From contig CBDBBM010000005.1 in NCBI GenBank assembly GCA_965203015.1, positions 93,631 through 157,630 of the forward strand: a DNA stretch of 64,000 bases, in the 5' to 3' direction. Shown in pieces: positions 5,542 through 26,698 of the stretch (position 1 is its first letter; every line of letters starts with the position of its first letter). The notes beneath the pieces are model-generated. The model made no database searches. It was given only the letters and a program-made list of their open reading frames with translations, and was not told where the DNA came from. The stretch is from Chloroflexota bacterium (GTDB lineage: Bacteria > Chloroflexota > UBA11872 > VXNJ01). The position numbers and the translations under genes were made by a program.

Positions 5542-7407
5542 ATGAAGCAGCGCGTCAAAAAGATTTGGGCAAGCAAGTCGGTTGCGATTCCCCTGGCTAC
5601 GGTTCTGGCCGCAACCATCGCGGTGGTTGTCTTTTCGACCTTCAACCGCGCCGGCGAAACCGCAGTTGAGCATCGGTTGACGCCGAGCGAGGCCATGGAA
5701 TTGGGCGCGCCGCCGGCACCGGCGCCCGTCAGTCCGCGGGAAGTCGAGCGGCGGCCGGAGCCGCGACCGGTTCCATCGGCCCAGGTCGAAGCTGACGCCA
5801 GGATCCTGGCCGGGCAGCTCGAAAACGTATCCATCGGTGGAGATGATTGGGCGGCCAGTTTCCAGCAAGCCGGCTCGACTTCCCGGTGGAGGGCACCCGC
5901 CGCGCCGGCCCAAGGATCCGGCTCCAAATCTCGGCGAACTGCCCCGGCCGCCGGGTCAAGCGCAGGGACCGCGACCGCAACTCCGGCGGCGACCAACTTT
6001 CGCGACTATCTGCGCACCCGCGCGGTCTCGACCGATGCTGATGCGGTTTCCACCTTCAGCCTGGACACGGATCGCACGTCCTTCCAGCTGGCGCTGAACT
6101 GGGTCAACTCCGGATATGCCGTAGAGCCGGATTCGGTACGTGCCGAGGAGTGGATCAACGCATTCGACTACCAATACGATCAACCGCTGCGCCGTGACAG
6201 CTTCGCCGTTACCAGCGCGTTGGTTGAACACCCGCTCAGGCAAGGCCAGTACCTGGCCAGATTGGCATTTCAAGCGCCCAAGATCGAAGACGATTCGCCG
6301 ATCAACGTGACCCTGGTCATGGACGCTTCGGGGTCAATGGGCGAAGGTAACCGTATCGCCATCGCCCACGCCGCCGCGGAGGCCATCCGCCGCAGCCTCA
6401 GGCCGCAGGACCGCATCGCGGTCGTGCAGTTCTCCAACGAGGTGATCAGCGAGCTGACGGTCGAGCATGCCGACCCCAGCGCCTATCAAGTGATCAGCGC
6501 CATTGAAGCGCTGCAGCCGCGCAATATGACCAATGTTCAGGCCGGACTCGACCTCGGGGTGCGGCTGGCCGATCAGGCCCGGCGCGAGCGACCCGACGCG
6601 TACAACTACTTGATCCTGTTCTCAGACGGTGTGGCCAACGTCGATGCCACCGATCCGTTCGGAATACTGGAGAGCGTTGGCGGGGATGCGGGCGACAACC
6701 CGCTGCGGCTCATCACAATCGGGGTCGGGGTCGAGAACTTCAACGATTACCTGCTCGAGCAGCTTGCCCAGCACGGCAACGGCTGGTACCGCTACCTTGC
6801 CGACGTTGAGCAGGCCCGCACCACGTTTGCGCGCGACAACTGGCTGGCGATCTCGATTCCGTTTGCCGACCAAGCGCGGGCCCAGGTCAGCTGGGACGAG
6901 GACGCGGTGCGGTCTTGGCGGCTGATCGGTTATGAAAACCGGATTGCTGACGATGCCGCATTTACCCAGGCCCGGCGCGAGTTCGCCGAAATCCCGGCCG
7001 GGTCCGCCACGACCGCCTTCTATGAGATCGAACTGGTGCGAACACCTCGGCCAGGTCAACGGCTGGGTGAAGTGGAGCTCCGGTGGAACACTCCGCTGTC
7101 GGGCGCGTCCAACCGGCAGCACGCGGCGATATTGGCCAATCCCGGCGGTGAGCGCCAAGACTCGGATGCGCTGCTGCGTTTCGGAGCAATCGTTGCTCTG
7201 GCTTCCGACCGCTACAGCAGCCTGCCGGATTCAAGTGCTGCAAACAGGCAGGTTTCGTCCGAGTTGGCGGCACTGCGTGACGAATTGCGCTACCTGGAAA
7301 ACCAACTCGGCGGGTCAAATGCGTACGCTGATTTCAAGTCCGTGCTCGGGCACCTTGCGGCGCTGCCGGCGTACAGCGAGTCGGCGCGCTCGGGATACAG
7401 TCCCTGA
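5542..7407 (+). CDS. von Willebrand factor type A domain protein, YfbK/DUF3520-like, N-terminal membrane anchor
   Basis: MKQRVKKIWASKSVAIPLATVLAATIAVVVF transmembrane anchor, Pro-rich linker, then LALNWVNSGYAVEPDSVRAEEWINAFDYQY followed by the MIDAS motif DASGSMGEGNRIA. Start taken at the ATG at 5542 inside longer ORF 5428..7407. Confidence 0.7.
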   Translation: MKQRVKKIWASKSVAIPLATVLAATIAVVVFSTFNRAGETAVEHRLTPSEAMELGAPPAPAPVSPREVERRPEPRPVPSAQVEADARILAGQLENVSIGGDDWAASFQQAGSTSRWRAPAAPAQGSGSKSRRTAPAAGSSAGTATATPAATNFRDYLRTRAVSTDADAVSTFSLDTDRTSFQLALNWVNSGYAVEPDSVRAEEWINAFDYQYDQPLRRDSFAVTSALVEHPLRQGQYLARLAFQAPKIEDDSPINVTLVMDASGSMGEGNRIAIAHAAAEAIRRSLRPQDRIAVVQFSNEVISELTVEHADPSAYQVISAIEALQPRNMTNVQAGLDLGVRLADQARRERPDAYNYLILFSDGVANVDATDPFGILESVGGDAGDNPLRLITIGVGVENFNDYLLEQLAQHGNGWYRYLADVEQARTTFARDNWLAISIPFADQARAQVSWDEDAVRSWRLIGYENRIADDAAFTQARREFAEIPAGSATTAFYEIELVRTPRPGQRLGEVELRWNTPLSGASNRQHAAILANPGGERQDSDALLRFGAIVALASDRYSSLPDSSAANRQVSSELAALRDELRYLENQLGGSNAYADFKSVLGHLAALPAYSESARSGYSP

Positions 7408-8171
7408 ACGGTAGTTAACCCACCGGCGAGCACTCCCCGGCGGCCGCGGCTTCCAGGGAGGCCGGCAAGCCGGCCCAATGCTGCCGTCGCCTTACGGGAA
7501 GGGGCCTGATTGGCAATCCCGGCCAGGTTCCCCGACACCGAAAACCTATCGGCATCTCGGGAAAAATTCAATCCGCGGTGCGGAACTGCGCAGCCATTTG
7601 ATCGGTCGACTCGGGCGGTTCGATGCGTGCCGCAGGCGACTCGGACAACCAAACCCGAGCGTACTTCGGGGCCCGCGGGCGCAAACGGGCAACACCAATG
7701 ATTTGTGTAAACGCGCAACGGCCGACCGCGTGCAGCCGCCGCGGTCGTGCCCGGGGGGCTCATAGATCGGCGCGAACGATTCATGGGGGTTCGATTGGCC
7801 CGCCCCGTTACCGGGATTGACCGCCCGGTAAGAACGCGGCCGGACGATTCGACGCGGCAAAACCCCGCCCTGCACACGCCCGCGCGCCCAACATGCCGCA
7901 AGCCGAGGCGACGGTTTGGCACGAAACGTTCGCAATTCGAAATCCCACGTTACCGTTGATTGCAGCACCGCGACGGTGGCGCCGGCCAAAAATTGGCTAT
8001 CGGATCGCGATCGACCGATTGCGGGACGCCCTTCGTGCCCGCCGCCGGCCTCGACACGGGCCTGCCAGAAAAAACCAGCGAATCATTCGGGTGGCCCTCC
8101 GACCACATCCTCTTTCCAGCATCCGCGCAATAGCGTGGCTGCTGGTAGCCACTGTCCGCGCCCAGATTCGC

Positions 8172-21140: not shown

Positions 21141-21157
21141 TTCGACCGGCTCTTGCC

Positions 21158-21174
21158 AATCGGTTGACCCGATT
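21158..21174. terminator. Short hairpin AATCGG-ttgac-CCGATT between convergent adh and TIR genes
   Basis: 6 bp stem seen in sequence. Overlaps the TIR gene stop codon. Weak. Confidence 0.2.
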
Positions 21175-21950
21175 CAATCGGTCACAGGACTCTGAATCAA
21201 TTGTGCGATTTCATCGGCGATTTCTGCGACAGTGTGCACGGATGTGCTGCGGGCAACTTTGTCCGCAAGCGAAGGGCTGAAATCAATCACCTTTTGCTTG
21301 GTAACGTCGTGCCAGATAGGAAGCACAACTTGCCCGCCAGCGTTCGATTGGGTGATGATTCCGTCCAATTCGTAGTTCGTCCAGCCTTTTTGCATAAATG
21401 CGGGTGAGAGCACAACTACCGCAAATCGCGATCGCGAGATTCCTCTGTCGATCAATCGGCGCAAGCTGTCACCTATCTTCAGTTCCAAATCGTCGTACCA
21501 AACGTCCAGCCCGTTTGCGATCAGTGCTTCGACCAATGGCTCGGCAACTTCCGACGCGTCCTCTTTCGCATGCGCGATGAACACGTCTTTCGGATCAGAT
21601 CCCCCTTCGCTGCGGATGCGATGCGCATCGCGTATCAAGGTCGGCACCGACGAAAGCGGGGCTTCCCGGATTGGCGGCAATGGGCTGGGGATAATGCGCA
21701 GCGACGACTTGACGCTGCCGCGCAATCCTTGCATGTCGATTGCAATATGCCAGTGCCCTGAATGAGGAATTGCAAGCCTTACCGGCGACTGTGTGGCACG
21801 ACCCCCGAAATACCGGTGCTTTCGGCCGTTTCGGTAGCTGGAGAAATTCGAACCGTCCAGAAGCCTGACGTTTGCGGCGTGGCCCGACAGGACTACTTCC
21901 GCAATCTCGCCTCGCTCCCGGTAGCCCAGATCGTAATGCGTAAATTTCAC
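21174..21950 (-). CDS. DUF1883-like N-terminal domain fused to a TIR domain (predicted NADase effector)
   Basis: C-terminal TIR: DVFIAHAKEDASEVAEPLVEAL...GLDVWYDDLELKIGDSLRRLIDRGISRSRFAVVVLSPAFMQKGWTNYELDGI, with the conserved catalytic Glu in W-x-x-x-E-L. N-terminal MKFTHYDLGYRERGEIAEVVLSGHAANVRLLDGSNFSSYRNGRKHRYFGGRATQSPVRLAIPHSGHWHIAID resembles DUF1883 (from memory). Low-GC gene. ATGA overlap with the upstream gene. Confidence 0.8.
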   Translation of the reverse strand: MKFTHYDLGYRERGEIAEVVLSGHAANVRLLDGSNFSSYRNGRKHRYFGGRATQSPVRLAIPHSGHWHIAIDMQGLRGSVKSSLRIIPSPLPPIREAPLSSVPTLIRDAHRIRSEGGSDPKDVFIAHAKEDASEVAEPLVEALIANGLDVWYDDLELKIGDSLRRLIDRGISRSRFAVVVLSPAFMQKGWTNYELDGIITQSNAGGQVVLPIWHDVTKQKVIDFSPSLADKVARSTSVHTVAEIADEIAQLIQSPVTD

Positions 21951-23155
21951 GCTGACGCACCCAAAGCATCAACGTCGGCCAGATCTTTAATGGTGCCGAC
22001 CCAATCTCCGGCGTACGCTGGATCACTGATCGCGAATGAATGCTCGATCTGCAGGGTTTCACAACTACTCGACCAAGAGTAGAAGTGGTTTAAGCCGGGA
22101 TGGTAGTGGCTGGAAATCAGTTGTTCCCATTCGAGTCGGGACACCACCATAAATGGCGGCGTATCGATCGAAAGTGCGAATTCCCAAATGTCATCGCTCT
22201 TAAATCGCCCTTGGGCGCAGAACGAGCGCCATCTTTCTTCGGGGATGATATTTGCCCACGCGAAGGAATCTGCTTCTTGTTCGACTGCAGGTGGTTCGAA
22301 ATCGATATCGAAACCGTCCAAATGGACCTTGCGATCCCCCTGATGGCGCAGCAGATGTCCGGCCAAATGGTAGAACGACAGCCAAAACGAGTCCGCAGTT
22401 TGCTCATCGGCGCCCAATTGAATCAACGCGCGTTGTTTGTTCAACCAGCGAGCTGCTCCCTTGATGGGTGCGTTGGGGAACGATTCAATCCATCGAAAAA
22501 CGACGCCCGAGTTCGCGCAAACTTGCTCCAGCATCGGCAATAACGCCGCGGGCGGATACTCCATCATCAGGCGGATTTCACCCATTGCTTGCTCGAACAC
22601 TTTGGCGTTGAAATCTGCAACTTCCGCGATTTCCGCTTCCAATTCGCCTTTTCGCAGCCAAGCGTAAAGAGATCCGATCGTGTCCGCTGCTAGCTCGCTT
22701 GAGGGCAATTTGACACCCGCGGATTCGATGCACCGGGTTGGATCGGCATCGAAAGCTCCGAGGAAATCCAGTAGGGACGCCGCCAACGCTTCGGTATCGA
22801 GCGTCGAGTCCAGCCAGCCGCGGTGCGTCATGGCGTCGGTCGGATATGCGCTCAGCCATGCTTCATTGTTTCGCGAGTTCTGTCGTTCGCGTTGTCGCGC
22901 TAGGACCAGTTGATACGTGTTCTCTAGATTGAGCCAGTACTGAGGATCGTGCCCCAGCACTGTTCCCAATTGAATAGCGGTGTCCGGCGTAATGGCTTTT
23001 TTGGCGTTGGCAATTTCACTGATTACCTGATACGGCCGCCCCATTCTTCCGGCTAATTCTTTTTGGGACATCCCTCTCGCTGCCAATTCCTCAACAAGGA
23101 ATTCACCGGGAGGAATTGGCAAGTCTGAGTGGACGCGGGACGATTTATTGGTCAT
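21947..23155 (-). CDS. HigA-family XRE HTH antitoxin-like domain fused to COG2856/ImmA-IrrE-like domain with degenerate HEXXH (HLAGH)
   Basis: N-terminal IPPGEFLVEELAARGMSQKELAGRMGRPYQVISEIANAKKAITPDTAIQLGTVLGHDPQYWLNLENTY is HigA/VapI-like. The C-terminal region FWLSFYHLAGHLLRH...EQEADSFAWANIIPEE matches the spacing of RFTLAHELGHLLLH...E..AN.FA of ImmA/IrrE, but the Glu of HEXXH is replaced by Leu. Confidence 0.7.
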   Translation of the reverse strand: MTNKSSRVHSDLPIPPGEFLVEELAARGMSQKELAGRMGRPYQVISEIANAKKAITPDTAIQLGTVLGHDPQYWLNLENTYQLVLARQRERQNSRNNEAWLSAYPTDAMTHRGWLDSTLDTEALAASLLDFLGAFDADPTRCIESAGVKLPSSELAADTIGSLYAWLRKGELEAEIAEVADFNAKVFEQAMGEIRLMMEYPPAALLPMLEQVCANSGVVFRWIESFPNAPIKGAARWLNKQRALIQLGADEQTADSFWLSFYHLAGHLLRHQGDRKVHLDGFDIDFEPPAVEQEADSFAWANIIPEERWRSFCAQGRFKSDDIWEFALSIDTPPFMVVSRLEWEQLISSHYHPGLNHFYSWSSSCETLQIEHSFAISDPAYAGDWVGTIKDLADVDALGASA

Positions 23156-23444
23156 AGTGATTGGTAACTTCTTTCACGACAACTACCCGCTGGTCCGCGG
23201 TTGGGACCAGAATCAGCCTCCACGTAGAGTCAATGTCAGCGGCGTATTCCCCTGATCGAGACCCCTTCAACGGATGCAGGCGCAACGCACGAATCCTGTG
23301 CAAGTCATCGAATGTCTGCACGGCATAAATCTGTTCAATTCGCATCACATACTTGCGTCCGACTACCGGCCCCCACTTTCGAATTGCTTTCTCAGAATCC
23401 TCGTAATTTCTTTGCAGCTGTCTATTGGCAAAAACTATTTCCAT
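23145..23444 (-). CDS. higB: HigB-like toxin (RelE/ParE superfamily mRNA interferase)
   Basis: 99 aa. LHPLKGSRSGEYAADIDSTWRLIL...HYDQ matches HigB family (LHPLKGDR.G.WS.R.N..WR..F...Y.DYH). Sits upstream of and overlapping the HigA-like gene. Confidence 0.75.
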   Translation of the reverse strand: MEIVFANRQLQRNYEDSEKAIRKWGPVVGRKYVMRIEQIYAVQTFDDLHRIRALRLHPLKGSRSGEYAADIDSTWRLILVPTADQRVVVVKEVTNHYDQ

Positions 23445-23445
23445 G

Positions 23446-23464
23446 ATTCACCCTATAGGTGAAT
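23446..23464. promoter_or_regulatory. Perfect palindrome ATTCACC-ctata-GGTGAAT abutting the higB start codon (candidate operator)
   Basis: Seen in sequence. 7 bp arms, 5 bp spacer, one nucleotide from the ATG at 23444. Confidence 0.45.
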
Positions 23465-23728
23465 GCTAGCAAATACAGGATTCTGCGGACGCTTTTCGGA
23501 TCGCACCGGAAGCTCGCCGGTGATGGGTCAGATTGTTCCGAATGCACCGTGGTAACCCCAGCAAATATGGCTCCAAATTACTTGTGGGCGGCACAGGGGT
23601 TGGACATCGGCAAACTCCACGTTGCGATTTCATATGCCTGGACCGGGGAAATCGAAGACGGCTGCAATCGTTACGATCAAGCATTGGGCATAATCGCCGC
23701 GGAATCGGCACGCTAAACGGACCCCTGC

Positions 23729-24493
23729 TTGCGCCCGCAAACCTACGCCCAGTTGATGCCCCGTTATGAGCAGTTGGGCAAGCTTCCCGGGGTCAGCATC
23801 GAACGGTTCCGGATACCGGACCGGTCGCACCAGTTGCTGGGGATCAGCGTGGGTCCGGACAAAGGGGCCGAGATCTCGGTGGGTCTGAGCGCCGGAGCGC
23901 ACGGCGACGAACCGGCGCCGGTCCAGGCCACGCTCCAGTTCCTGGAGGAAGAGCGCTGGCGGAACTGGGCGAACGTGAGGATGCGGATCCTGCCGTGCCT
24001 GAATCCGACCGGGTTCGACCTGCGAACCAGGGAAAACGACAAGGGCCAGGACGTTAACCGGACATTCAAGTGGGGCAACAGCCCGGAGTCGCTGGCGGCG
24101 ATGGTGCTGATCGGGCTGGACAGGGTCGATCTGTGGATCGACGCCCACGAGGACCCGGTCGAAGACGGTTTCTACTGCTTCTCGCGCCTGCCTTCGGATT
24201 GGGGCCCGCCGCTGGTCGCCGCGGTCGCCGCCGAGGGGCCGATCTACCCGCGCCCGGAAGTGGATGAAATGACGGTCAAGGACGGGATCGTGCAGTTCGA
24301 CGCCGACCGCCGGAGCGAGCGGCGGAGGCGGATGCGCGAAAGCGGTTCCTGGGGTCTCTCGGCGCACATCGATGCCCAGATTTCCGATAAGTCGGTCACC
24401 CTGGAGACACCGGGCGTGATCGAGCTCGAAACAAGGATCCGGATGCAGCTGGCCGCCTATTCGGCCCTGCTCGACTTGGTGACCGCGCGCTAG
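23729..24493 (+). CDS. M14-family zinc carboxypeptidase / succinylglutamate desuccinylase-aspartoacylase (AstE/AspA)-like protein, copy 1
   Basis: GAHGDEP zinc motif, HxxE. Paralogous to 25868..26698. Confidence 0.6.
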   Translation: MRPQTYAQLMPRYEQLGKLPGVSIERFRIPDRSHQLLGISVGPDKGAEISVGLSAGAHGDEPAPVQATLQFLEEERWRNWANVRMRILPCLNPTGFDLRTRENDKGQDVNRTFKWGNSPESLAAMVLIGLDRVDLWIDAHEDPVEDGFYCFSRLPSDWGPPLVAAVAAEGPIYPRPEVDEMTVKDGIVQFDADRRSERRRRMRESGSWGLSAHIDAQISDKSVTLETPGVIELETRIRMQLAAYSALLDLVTAR

Positions 24494-25785: not shown

Positions 25786-25867
25786 GCTGGCTGGCCGAGG
25801 GAATGGGCCGCGCCTGGCGGCATTGGATTTCGATAATCGACGCGCCGCGCCAAAAGCAAAGAGATTA

Positions 25868-26698
25868 ATGCCCAGAGCAAGCAATTACCAGGAGTTGTTC
25901 AGGCGCTACCTTGCCCTGCAGGGCGCACCCGGCGTTCGGCTGATCCGACACAACCTGCTCGAACGCGGTCTCGACCTGGTTCGCCTGGAGCTCTGCGCGT
26001 CGCCCGATCCGCAATTTACGGTCGCCATGTTCTCGGGTACGCACGGCGACGAGCCCGCCCCGGTGCACGCGGTGCTGCAGTTCCTCGAGGAAGAGCGCTG
26101 GCGGGCCTGGCCGCAAATCCGGTTCAAGGTCATGCCGTGCATCAACCCGACCGGTTTTGACCTGGGGATCCGCGAAAACGTCGACGGCCAGGACGTGAAC
26201 CGGACGTTCAAGCTGGGCGAGAGTCCCGAGTCGAGGGTCGGAACCGAGATGATCGGCACCGAGCCGTTCGACATGTGGATTGACGCCCACGAGGACCCGG
26301 TCGAGGACGGTTTCTACTGTTTCTCGCAGCTCCCCAACCCCTGGTCGGACGCGCTGGTGGCCGAGGTCGGTCGGCACGGCCCGATCTTCGCCAAGCCGGA
26401 AGTTGATGAAATGCCGGTTTCAGCCGGGGTCGTGCACCGCAGCGAGGGCGAGGAAGACGGGGCGCTCAACGAGGAAATCGAGGAATGGGTGCGCGAACGG
26501 ACCAACTGGCCGCTGCCGTTCTACGTGATGGTGAACCTGGCGCGGCTGGGGGTGACCCTGGAGACGCCCGGGGTGATCGATCTGGAAGCGCGGGTCCGTA
26601 TGCAGCTGGCCGGTTACGACATTCTGTTGGACCTCCTCTGCGGGCGTCGCGATCCGGTCGCCACCGTTGCGGCGGCAAGGGAAGCGAGCCGGGCCTAA
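25868..26698 (+). CDS. M14-family zinc carboxypeptidase / AstE-AspA-like protein, copy 2
   Basis: GTHGDEPAP, INPTGFDL, WIDAHEDPVEDGFYCF all shared with copy 1. Start taken at MPRASNYQ (ATG at 25868) by alignment with copy 1. Confidence 0.6.
   Translation: MPRASNYQELFRRYLALQGAPGVRLIRHNLLERGLDLVRLELCASPDPQFTVAMFSGTHGDEPAPVHAVLQFLEEERWRAWPQIRFKVMPCINPTGFDLGIRENVDGQDVNRTFKLGESPESRVGTEMIGTEPFDMWIDAHEDPVEDGFYCFSQLPNPWSDALVAEVGRHGPIFAKPEVDEMPVSAGVVHRSEGEEDGALNEEIEEWVRERTNWPLPFYVMVNLARLGVTLETPGVIDLEARVRMQLAGYDILLDLLCGRRDPVATVAAAREASRA

Follow-up and report, generated by a model that had tools for sequence, protein, structure and literature searches.

How does a toxin-antitoxin-like gene pair become joined to a gene for a TIR-domain protein, and could its regulator hold both an RNase toxin and a TIR NADase (an enzyme cleaving nicotinamide adenine dinucleotide, NAD+) in check? 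The question is raised by a cassette of three overlapping minus-strand open reading frames (ORFs), here geneA, geneB and geneC, at positions 21174-23444 of a 64,000-nt stretch from a Chloroflexota bacterium (contig CBDBBM010000005.1, positions 93,631 to 157,630 of the forward strand), which as a whole we call the window. Our best reading is that the cassette forms one three-gene operon descended from a two-gene module, made of a HigB-like protein and a fusion of a HigA helix-turn-helix (HTH) to an ImmA/IrrE domain, and that this module captured a normally autonomous DUF1883-TIR gene. More specifically, a module resembling PD-lambda-2 or RosmerTA might have taken a TIR NADase as its effector, with geneB serving as autorepressor and non-catalytic gatekeeper, a tentative reading that we consider somewhat short of likely. 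It is supported by the recurrence of the same gene overlaps, by looser trios that look precursor-like, by a conserved leader palindrome and by the relatedness of the TIR domain to AbTIR. Further support comes from PD-lambda-2, which needs a third gene, and from the HTH-ImmA antitoxins of RosmerTA, which pair with many toxins.

Layout and recurrence of the cassette

The genes, and the domains of geneB, are arranged as follows.

23145-23444, minus strand: geneA, 99 aa, HigB-like (RelE-fold) protein
21947-23155, minus strand: geneB, 402 aa, with a HigA-type HTH, a helical linker, an ImmA/IrrE (M78)-fold pseudo-protease and a C-terminal tail
22892-23119, minus strand: HigA/XRE HTH of geneB, aa 13-88
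22073-22465, minus strand: M78-fold domain of geneB, aa ~231-361; carries the degenerate motif HLAGH
21950-22072, minus strand: C-terminal extension of geneB, aa 362-402, absent from relatives of ~365 aa and predicted to be disordered
21174-21950, minus strand: geneC, 258 aa, DUF1883 (aa 1-89) followed by an AbTIR-type TIR domain (aa ~121-253)

The original prediction, made from the window alone, described three coupled minus-strand genes, and both the ORFs and their overlaps were recovered here. GeneA and geneB share 11 nt (ATGACCAATAA) and geneB and geneC share 4 nt, as proposed, except that the latter overlap reads GTGA and not ATGA because geneC begins with GTG. The start of geneC is called correctly, since homologues share the same initial M-x-F-x-H residues. 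The same 4-nt position reads ATGA in the homologous cassette of locus L164 and TTGA in that of L003. The earlier domain assignments (HigB-like, HigA HTH, ImmA/IrrE, DUF1883 and TIR) likewise hold in profile and structure comparisons. All three genes are under purifying selection and none is decaying, with ratios of nonsynonymous to synonymous substitution (dN/dS) of 0.05-0.29 for all genes and domains tested save the geneB tail in the comparison with L001.

The trio does recur in other contigs. Tight trios, with the same overlaps of 11 nt and 4 nt, were found in L001, L002 and L003, at a site syntenic with that of the window, and in L164, where the surroundings are unrelated to the window site and include KAP NTPase, AAA_23/SMC-like and IS3 transposase genes. 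Identity of geneB to the window copy is 96% in L001, 62% in L002 and L003 and 48% in L164. The presence of the tight trio at two unrelated genomic sites indicates that it moves as a unit. Tight trios are rare, with contig-length matches between hit lists suggesting about seven contigs in all. In L002 the TIR gene (7206-7979) is intact by tblastn and lacks a gene call in the source annotation, while geneB and geneC of L001 are annotated with shortened N-termini. Such gene-call artefacts lead protein databases to understate how often the trio occurs. Two further loci, L084 and L179, carry loose trios, in which a 99-aa gene and a 367-aa geneB with an intact HExxH motif are followed, after a spacer of 100-101 nt, by a DUF1883-TIR gene. 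The loose trios appear precursor-like in their arrangement.

The toxin-antitoxin-like pair and its candidate operator

Judged by sequence, geneA and geneB belong to a large known family that combines a HigB-like protein with a HigA-HTH/ImmA-IrrE fusion. The earlier statement that no named system matches the cassette is thus only partly upheld: no description of the trio itself turned up in the literature searched, but its first two genes fall into a family that includes PD-lambda-2 B and resembles RosmerTA antitoxins. At 50% identity, the geneB family comprises 595 clusters (E<=1e-30) in a library of 1.84 billion proteins; one representative (P0004) among the best 150 of the 595 is of the tight clade. 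In NCBI annotation the mainstream geneB relatives, with a length of about 365 aa, appear as 'HigA family addiction module antitoxin' or as 'ImmA/IrrE family metallo-endopeptidase'. They are preceded by the 99-aa gene, in most cases overlapping it by 11 nt as in the window, and these two-gene modules are found on both chromosomes and plasmids. The genes that follow are variable and often of housekeeping type (PanC, DprA, Rieske and Zn-ribbon proteins, or unassigned ORFs), and no conserved third gene after mainstream geneB was found among the loci examined. At L165/L166 (4597-6015), a mainstream module is followed after 4 nt by two conserved ORFs of 121 aa and 343 aa that have no Pfam or PADLOC match and may represent another third component. 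Carriage of the family by phages was considered and rejected, as viral contigs gave only four weak matches.

GeneA matches the Pfam family HigB-like_toxin with an E-value of 2.8e-5 and 24.9 bits, slightly below the gathering cut-off of 27, and a phmmer comparison aligns it with Proteus vulgaris HigB (E 0.002) over the stretch LHPLKG.R.G...WR. The catalytic residues of P. vulgaris HigB are His54, Arg73, Asp90, Tyr91 and His92 (PMC5027501). With residue roles taken from that study, geneA has equivalents of His54, Lys57, Arg60, Arg73 and Tyr91, those of His54 and Arg73 lying within the phmmer alignment and the C-terminus having been compared by eye. The Asp90/His92 pair is permuted, with NHYDQ in geneA against EDYH in HigB. 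RNase competence of geneA is plausible given these residues, and its dN/dS compared to L003 is 0.09. The pair resembles HigB-HigA of P. vulgaris in its toxin-first order, in the RelE/HigB fold signature of geneA, in what appear to be most of its catalytic residues, and in the HigA HTH of geneB. It differs in that geneB has four times the antitoxin length, owing to the pseudo-protease domain, that the DYH of HigB reads HYD in geneA, and that a third gene follows.

The HTH is the best conserved region of geneB (dN/dS 0.04), compared to 0.10 for the M78-fold domain and 0.14 for the whole gene against L003. The M78 domain carries HLAGH at aa 263-267 (nt 22355-22369) in place of the HExxH that defines M78 metallopeptidases, and retains the downstream element E-x-E-A-D-x-F-A, just as the original prediction of a degenerate protease had it. 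The predicted structure of geneB has a mean confidence (pLDDT) of 82 and is confident save for residues 363-402 (pLDDT <50); CapP is the top structural match for the C-terminal domain. Pairs of an XRE-type HTH and an M78-fold domain are also known from ImmR/ImmA, CapH/CapP and DdrO/IrrE. There an active protease cleaves the repressor; in geneB, by contrast, both domains are parts of one protein and the protease site is inactivated.

Among defence models in PADLOC, geneB matches PD-Lambda-2_B best (5.6e-19, compared to ~1e-39 for mainstream relatives) and RmrA models weakly (8e-7 to 3e-2). PD-lambda-2 of E. coli encodes a HigB-like A and a B with a HigA HTH and a peptidase domain; B by itself is toxic and is counteracted by A, and defence requires a third gene, a relative of a P4 phage antitoxin (Vassallo et al. 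2022, PMC9519451). The cassette shares with it the three-gene operon and a HigA-type HTH fused to an ImmA/IrrE domain, and the gene that precedes the fusion is probably HigB-like in both. In the cassette, though, the third gene encodes DUF1883-TIR instead of a P4-antitoxin relative, geneB lacks the HExxH Glu and has an additional C-terminal tail, and geneA matches no PADLOC model. RosmerTA (RmrT/RmrA) consists of an HTH and ImmA-type Zn-peptidase antitoxin that is paired with many unrelated toxins (Millman et al. 2022; Ernits et al. 2023, PMC10440598). GeneB resembles this antitoxin in joining an HTH to an ImmA-type fold, with weak RmrA matches at about 1e-6, but RosmerTA has two genes where the cassette has three overlapping ones, the peptidase motif is dead in geneB, and PMC10440598 mentions neither a HigB-like partner nor a TIR toxin. 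Both PD-lambda-2 and RosmerTA protect against phages.

Upstream of geneA, the leader holds a candidate site for the geneB HTH.

23445-23728, minus strand: intergenic leader and promoter region of the cassette, GC 0.54
23447-23463, no strand assigned: palindrome TTCACC-N5-GGTGAA, ending 2 nt before the geneA ATG, probable operator for the geneB HTH

An inverted-repeat search missed the palindrome, as its arms are only 6-7 nt long, and it was revealed by alignment of the leaders of the window, L001, L002 and L164. It is the main conserved part of that alignment, at the 3' end of the leader; the remaining leader is conserved only in the closest relative, L001. When at most one mismatch is allowed, 40 of 53 loci with a long-form geneB have the palindrome at a fixed distance, even where protein identity is as low as 27%, and only 6 of 81 loci without geneB have it anywhere. 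At the same tolerance of one mismatch, the window holds one match where 0.13 would be expected. Examples elsewhere include L084 624-640, L164 3797-3813, L165 3193-3209 and about 35 other loci. A reading as RNA hairpin was rejected, since the fold is no better than that of shuffled sequences (z -1.19) and compensatory changes are absent from the arms. We read the palindrome as an HTH operator rather than an RNA structure because the arms are invariant and no other part of geneB is as constrained as the HTH. TTCACC-N5-GGTGAA is thus probably the operator of the geneB HTH, and it provides a defined candidate operator for the whole HigB/HigA-M78 family. A search for a sigma-70 promoter consensus in the cassette and leader gave no match, and a search for terminators in the cassette returned one irrelevant terminator-like site.

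The TIR gene and its possible control

GeneC matches DUF1883 (E 4.9e-34, the fold of PDB 2b1y) and TIR_2 (2.3e-19). The catalytic Glu that had been noted in the sequence is indeed kept: the WxxxE motif reads WTNYE (nt 21369-21383; W190 and E194) and is invariant in the DUF1883-TIR family. The TIR domain is closely related to AbTIR, an experimentally characterised NADase whose expression reduces cellular NAD+, and W190 and E194 are the equivalents of AbTIR W204 and E208; an E208A mutant served as catalytically inactive control in work on that enzyme. GeneC has the TIR fold and the WxxxE with catalytic Glu of enzymatic TIR domains of the AbTIR type, and differs from AbTIR, PdTIR and TcpB (BtpA) in its N-terminal DUF1883 domain and its place in a toxin-antitoxin-like operon. 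Its dN/dS in comparison to L003 is 0.055. The PADLOC model PD-Lambda-2_C gave no match to geneC. A match to the candidate system PDC-S66 (8e-61) extends over the TIR part alone, at positions 146-281 of the 282 in the profile, so that the N-terminal domain differs; membership was rejected, as was membership in CBASS.

Matches of geneC to the PADLOC ThsB models (E 7e-35 and 8e-21) raise the question whether the TIR protein might act as a signal generator, as in Thoeris, making an isomer of cyclic ADP-ribose (cADPR) for an effector encoded elsewhere, with geneA and geneB controlling only transcription or stability. AbTIR-type TIR domains are reported to make 2'cADPR (bioRxiv 10.1101/2022.05.07.491051), which would fit such a role. 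The surroundings of the cassette fit it poorly: no ThsA-like (SIR2/SLOG/Macro) gene lies near the cassette in the window, L001-L003 or L164, on which ground Thoeris membership was rejected, and a search across 80 DUF1883-TIR loci found no universal or conserved partner gene. Expression of AbTIR alone also lowers cellular NAD+. We regard a signal-generating role as improbable.

The family to which geneC belongs is large (6,373 matches) and retains about 57-67% identity across many phyla. Its neighbours vary, and include type I restriction genes, small membrane proteins and a gene set of Bacteroidales; in 46 of 77 loci no upstream gene ends within 40 nt of the TIR gene. These variable neighbours and the frequent lack of a close upstream gene indicate that DUF1883-TIR behaves as a self-contained unit, often placed at the end of other operons. 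At L178 (993-4780), it shares 4 nt with the 3' end of a type I HsdR gene, and type I restriction-modification genes occur in several other loci. In L021 (2381-6768) and 7-9 similar Bacteroidales loci, recurrent genes lie upstream, encoding an ATPase-like protein of ~740 aa, a protein of ~337 aa and an ORF of ~100 aa with a weak GIY-YIG match that ends a few nt from the TIR start. This set may be another multi-gene context of DUF1883-TIR. The family is also common on enterobacterial plasmids, with 140 plasmid records matched, of which 74 are predicted to be conjugative. An E. coli IncF plasmid (NZ_CP038792.1; L175, 3218-4768) encodes a DUF1883-TIR protein 60% identical to geneC; in this one record inspected, a second and divergent gene with a TIR domain adjoins it back to back, and a RelE/ParE-CopG pair lies close by.

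Such independence suggests that the cassette could simply hold two systems on one transcript, a HigB-like/HigA-M78 toxin-antitoxin pair and an autonomous DUF1883-TIR protein in which DUF1883 senses and TIR executes. The TIR gene would then have inserted at the module's 3' end and would rely on its promoter, with no control by geneB at the protein level. DUF1883-TIR stands without geneA or geneB in all 80 sampled genome loci, is attached to many unrelated upstream genes including HsdR, and is very conserved across phyla, as expected of an autonomous unit. The geneA/geneB pair is in turn normally complete alone, and the single TIR NADase protein SpbK is reported to suffice as a full abortive-infection system. 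We find this arrangement possible and take it seriously, yet unlikely on balance, because it leaves three features of the TIR-overlapping clade unexplained: loss of the HExxH Glu in 7/7 members compared to 2/114 elsewhere, a conserved geneB tail in this clade alone, and changes at six otherwise invariant TIR residues.

The first of these features comes from a census of 121 geneB-family proteins (114 mainstream and 7 tight-clade), in which 112 mainstream proteins keep HExxH and all tight-clade proteins have lost the Glu. The tight-clade motifs are HLAGH (twice), HSAGL, NLAGH, RAASH, HLAGY and HQAGH, some of which have lost a His ligand too. Two mainstream proteins also lack the Glu, P0079 (L177 3501-4604) and P0115, with HQACH and HKACH, respectively. 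No TIR gene lies near P0079, so TIR-linked copies are not the only ones to have lost the Glu. The change extends beyond the motif, and 28 of 132 mainstream-conserved columns of geneB are altered in most tight-clade members, including the GAN loop and Asp301.

The second feature, a C-terminal tail of roughly 40 residues, is common to the five full-length tight-clade members, in which its F and W-[IV]-G are conserved. Compared to L001, which is nearly identical, the 41-codon tail has a dN/dS of 0.92, based on four substitutions. The conserved Y-x-W codon and the TIR start lie 122 nt apart both in the window and in L084, where that stretch is a non-coding spacer, and 121 nt apart in L179. By this geometry alone, an origin of the tail by loss of a stop codon and read-through into the spacer fits.

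The third feature concerns geneC itself. Tight-clade TIR domains share the substitutions S126A, S129K, K132A, F155L, L171I and G177A (about 21420-21575 in the window), at six sites that are >=96% invariant in 114 other DUF1883-TIR proteins. Among 25 control clades, the number of such clade-specific sites ranges from 0 to 3. The TIR proteins of the loose trios (P0193 and P0203) and their close relative P0192 retain the common residues at all six.

The linked clade has thus lost HExxH, gained a tail and acquired clade-specific TIR substitutions, which makes it more plausible that the HigA-like protein gates both an RNase and a TIR NADase, as had been proposed from the window alone. In the mechanism that we suggest, the HTH of geneB would bind the palindrome and repress the operon, and translational coupling would set the ratio of the three proteins. 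GeneB, no longer a protease, would keep the TIR protein inactive, with the HigB-like protein as a partner and the restraint exerted probably by the new tail, the remodelled pseudo-protease domain or both. A phage-linked disturbance, such as loss, titration or rearrangement of geneB, might then release the TIR domain, which would self-associate and cleave NAD+ at the WxxxE site, resulting in NAD+ depletion or a cADPR isomer. The infected cell would stop growing, an abortive infection to which the HigB-like protein may add ribosome-dependent mRNA cleavage.

Several observations weigh against this gatekeeping mechanism. The tight-clade contrasts stem from one lineage or acquisition on about seven contigs, which are phylogenetically non-independent, and are therefore suggestive. 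GeneA and geneB were adjacent to DUF1883-TIR in none of the 80 loci sampled for that family, so the TIR protein may need no partner. The window copy lies between housekeeping genes and outside any defence island, and neither geneA nor its homologues matched a PADLOC model. For the tail, no similarity to the spacers of L084 and L179 was seen in DNA or protein; the L084 spacer is open in frame, with a chance probability of ~0.2, and that of L179 is shifted by 1 nt and out of frame.

A bolder version holds that the cassette shows effector replacement caught in the act. Proteolysis would have been abandoned after the TIR gene arrived, the former spacer would now encode a TIR-neutralising antitoxin element, and a pseudo-enzyme would gate the destruction of NAD+. 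We consider this sequence of events doubtful, somewhat more so than the mere coexistence of two independent systems. If the coupling is real, the loose trios with an intact protease and the tight trios with a dead protease and a new tail form a natural before-and-after pair. Their comparison could show how toxin-antitoxin-type regulators gain effectors and how bacterial TIR NADases stay silent, and a TIR output would be added to the PD-lambda-2/Rosmer class. As far as present evidence goes, the cassette is of interest but rare, a lineage-specific variation on known modules of phage-defence type and no new kind of system.

Composition, setting and age

The cassette is foreign in composition to its flanks, and the expectation that it is richer in AT was borne out. 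GC content is 0.49-0.56 in its genes and 0.64-0.69 in six flanking genes, GC at third codon positions (GC3) is 0.54-0.62 and 0.78-0.86, respectively, and the cassette stretch is the GC minimum of the whole window. The composition agrees with the horizontal insertion suggested by the original prediction, but the insertion is not recent, as relatives whose flanking proteins are 82-97% identical carry the cassette at the same site. Between the window and L002/L003, identity is 83% for geneC, 69% for geneA and 62% for geneB. A cassette at the same site despite diverged flanks must predate the split of the window and L002/L003 lineages, or it was exchanged at that site. Flanking direct repeats, tRNA genes, integrases and Rfam elements were sought around the cassette as marks of insertion, and none were found.

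Persistence at one site between housekeeping genes over a long divergence would also suit a purely selfish addiction cassette without any role in phage defence, in which loss of the trio kills the cell and the TIR NADase is a second, stronger toxin. NCBI labels the geneA/geneB family as addiction-module proteins, and the family occurs on plasmids. Such a role seems very unlikely to us, given that the validated relatives PD-lambda-2 and RosmerTA defend against phages, that other DUF1883-TIR genes lie in type I restriction operons, and that the genes beside the L164 copy are typical of defence or mobile islands.

Both cassette copies (window 21174-23444 and L003 63-2333) keep a GC3 of ~0.55-0.62, compared to ~0.8 in host genes. 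The two copies occupy the same chromosomal site and their synonymous divergence has reached saturation (dS about 2), yet the expected amelioration is absent. Recurrent replacement of the cassette or selection for low GC are possible reasons for its low GC3.

The housekeeping nature of the flanks, described earlier as an alcohol dehydrogenase and an M14 peptidase, stands, and the latter is more exactly an AstE/AspA-like (succinylglutamate desuccinylase/aspartoacylase) protein. Two AstE/AspA-like paralogues (23729-24493 and 25823-26698, ~50% identical) bracket a gene of the enolase superfamily (MR_MLE), and this order is kept in L001 and L002.

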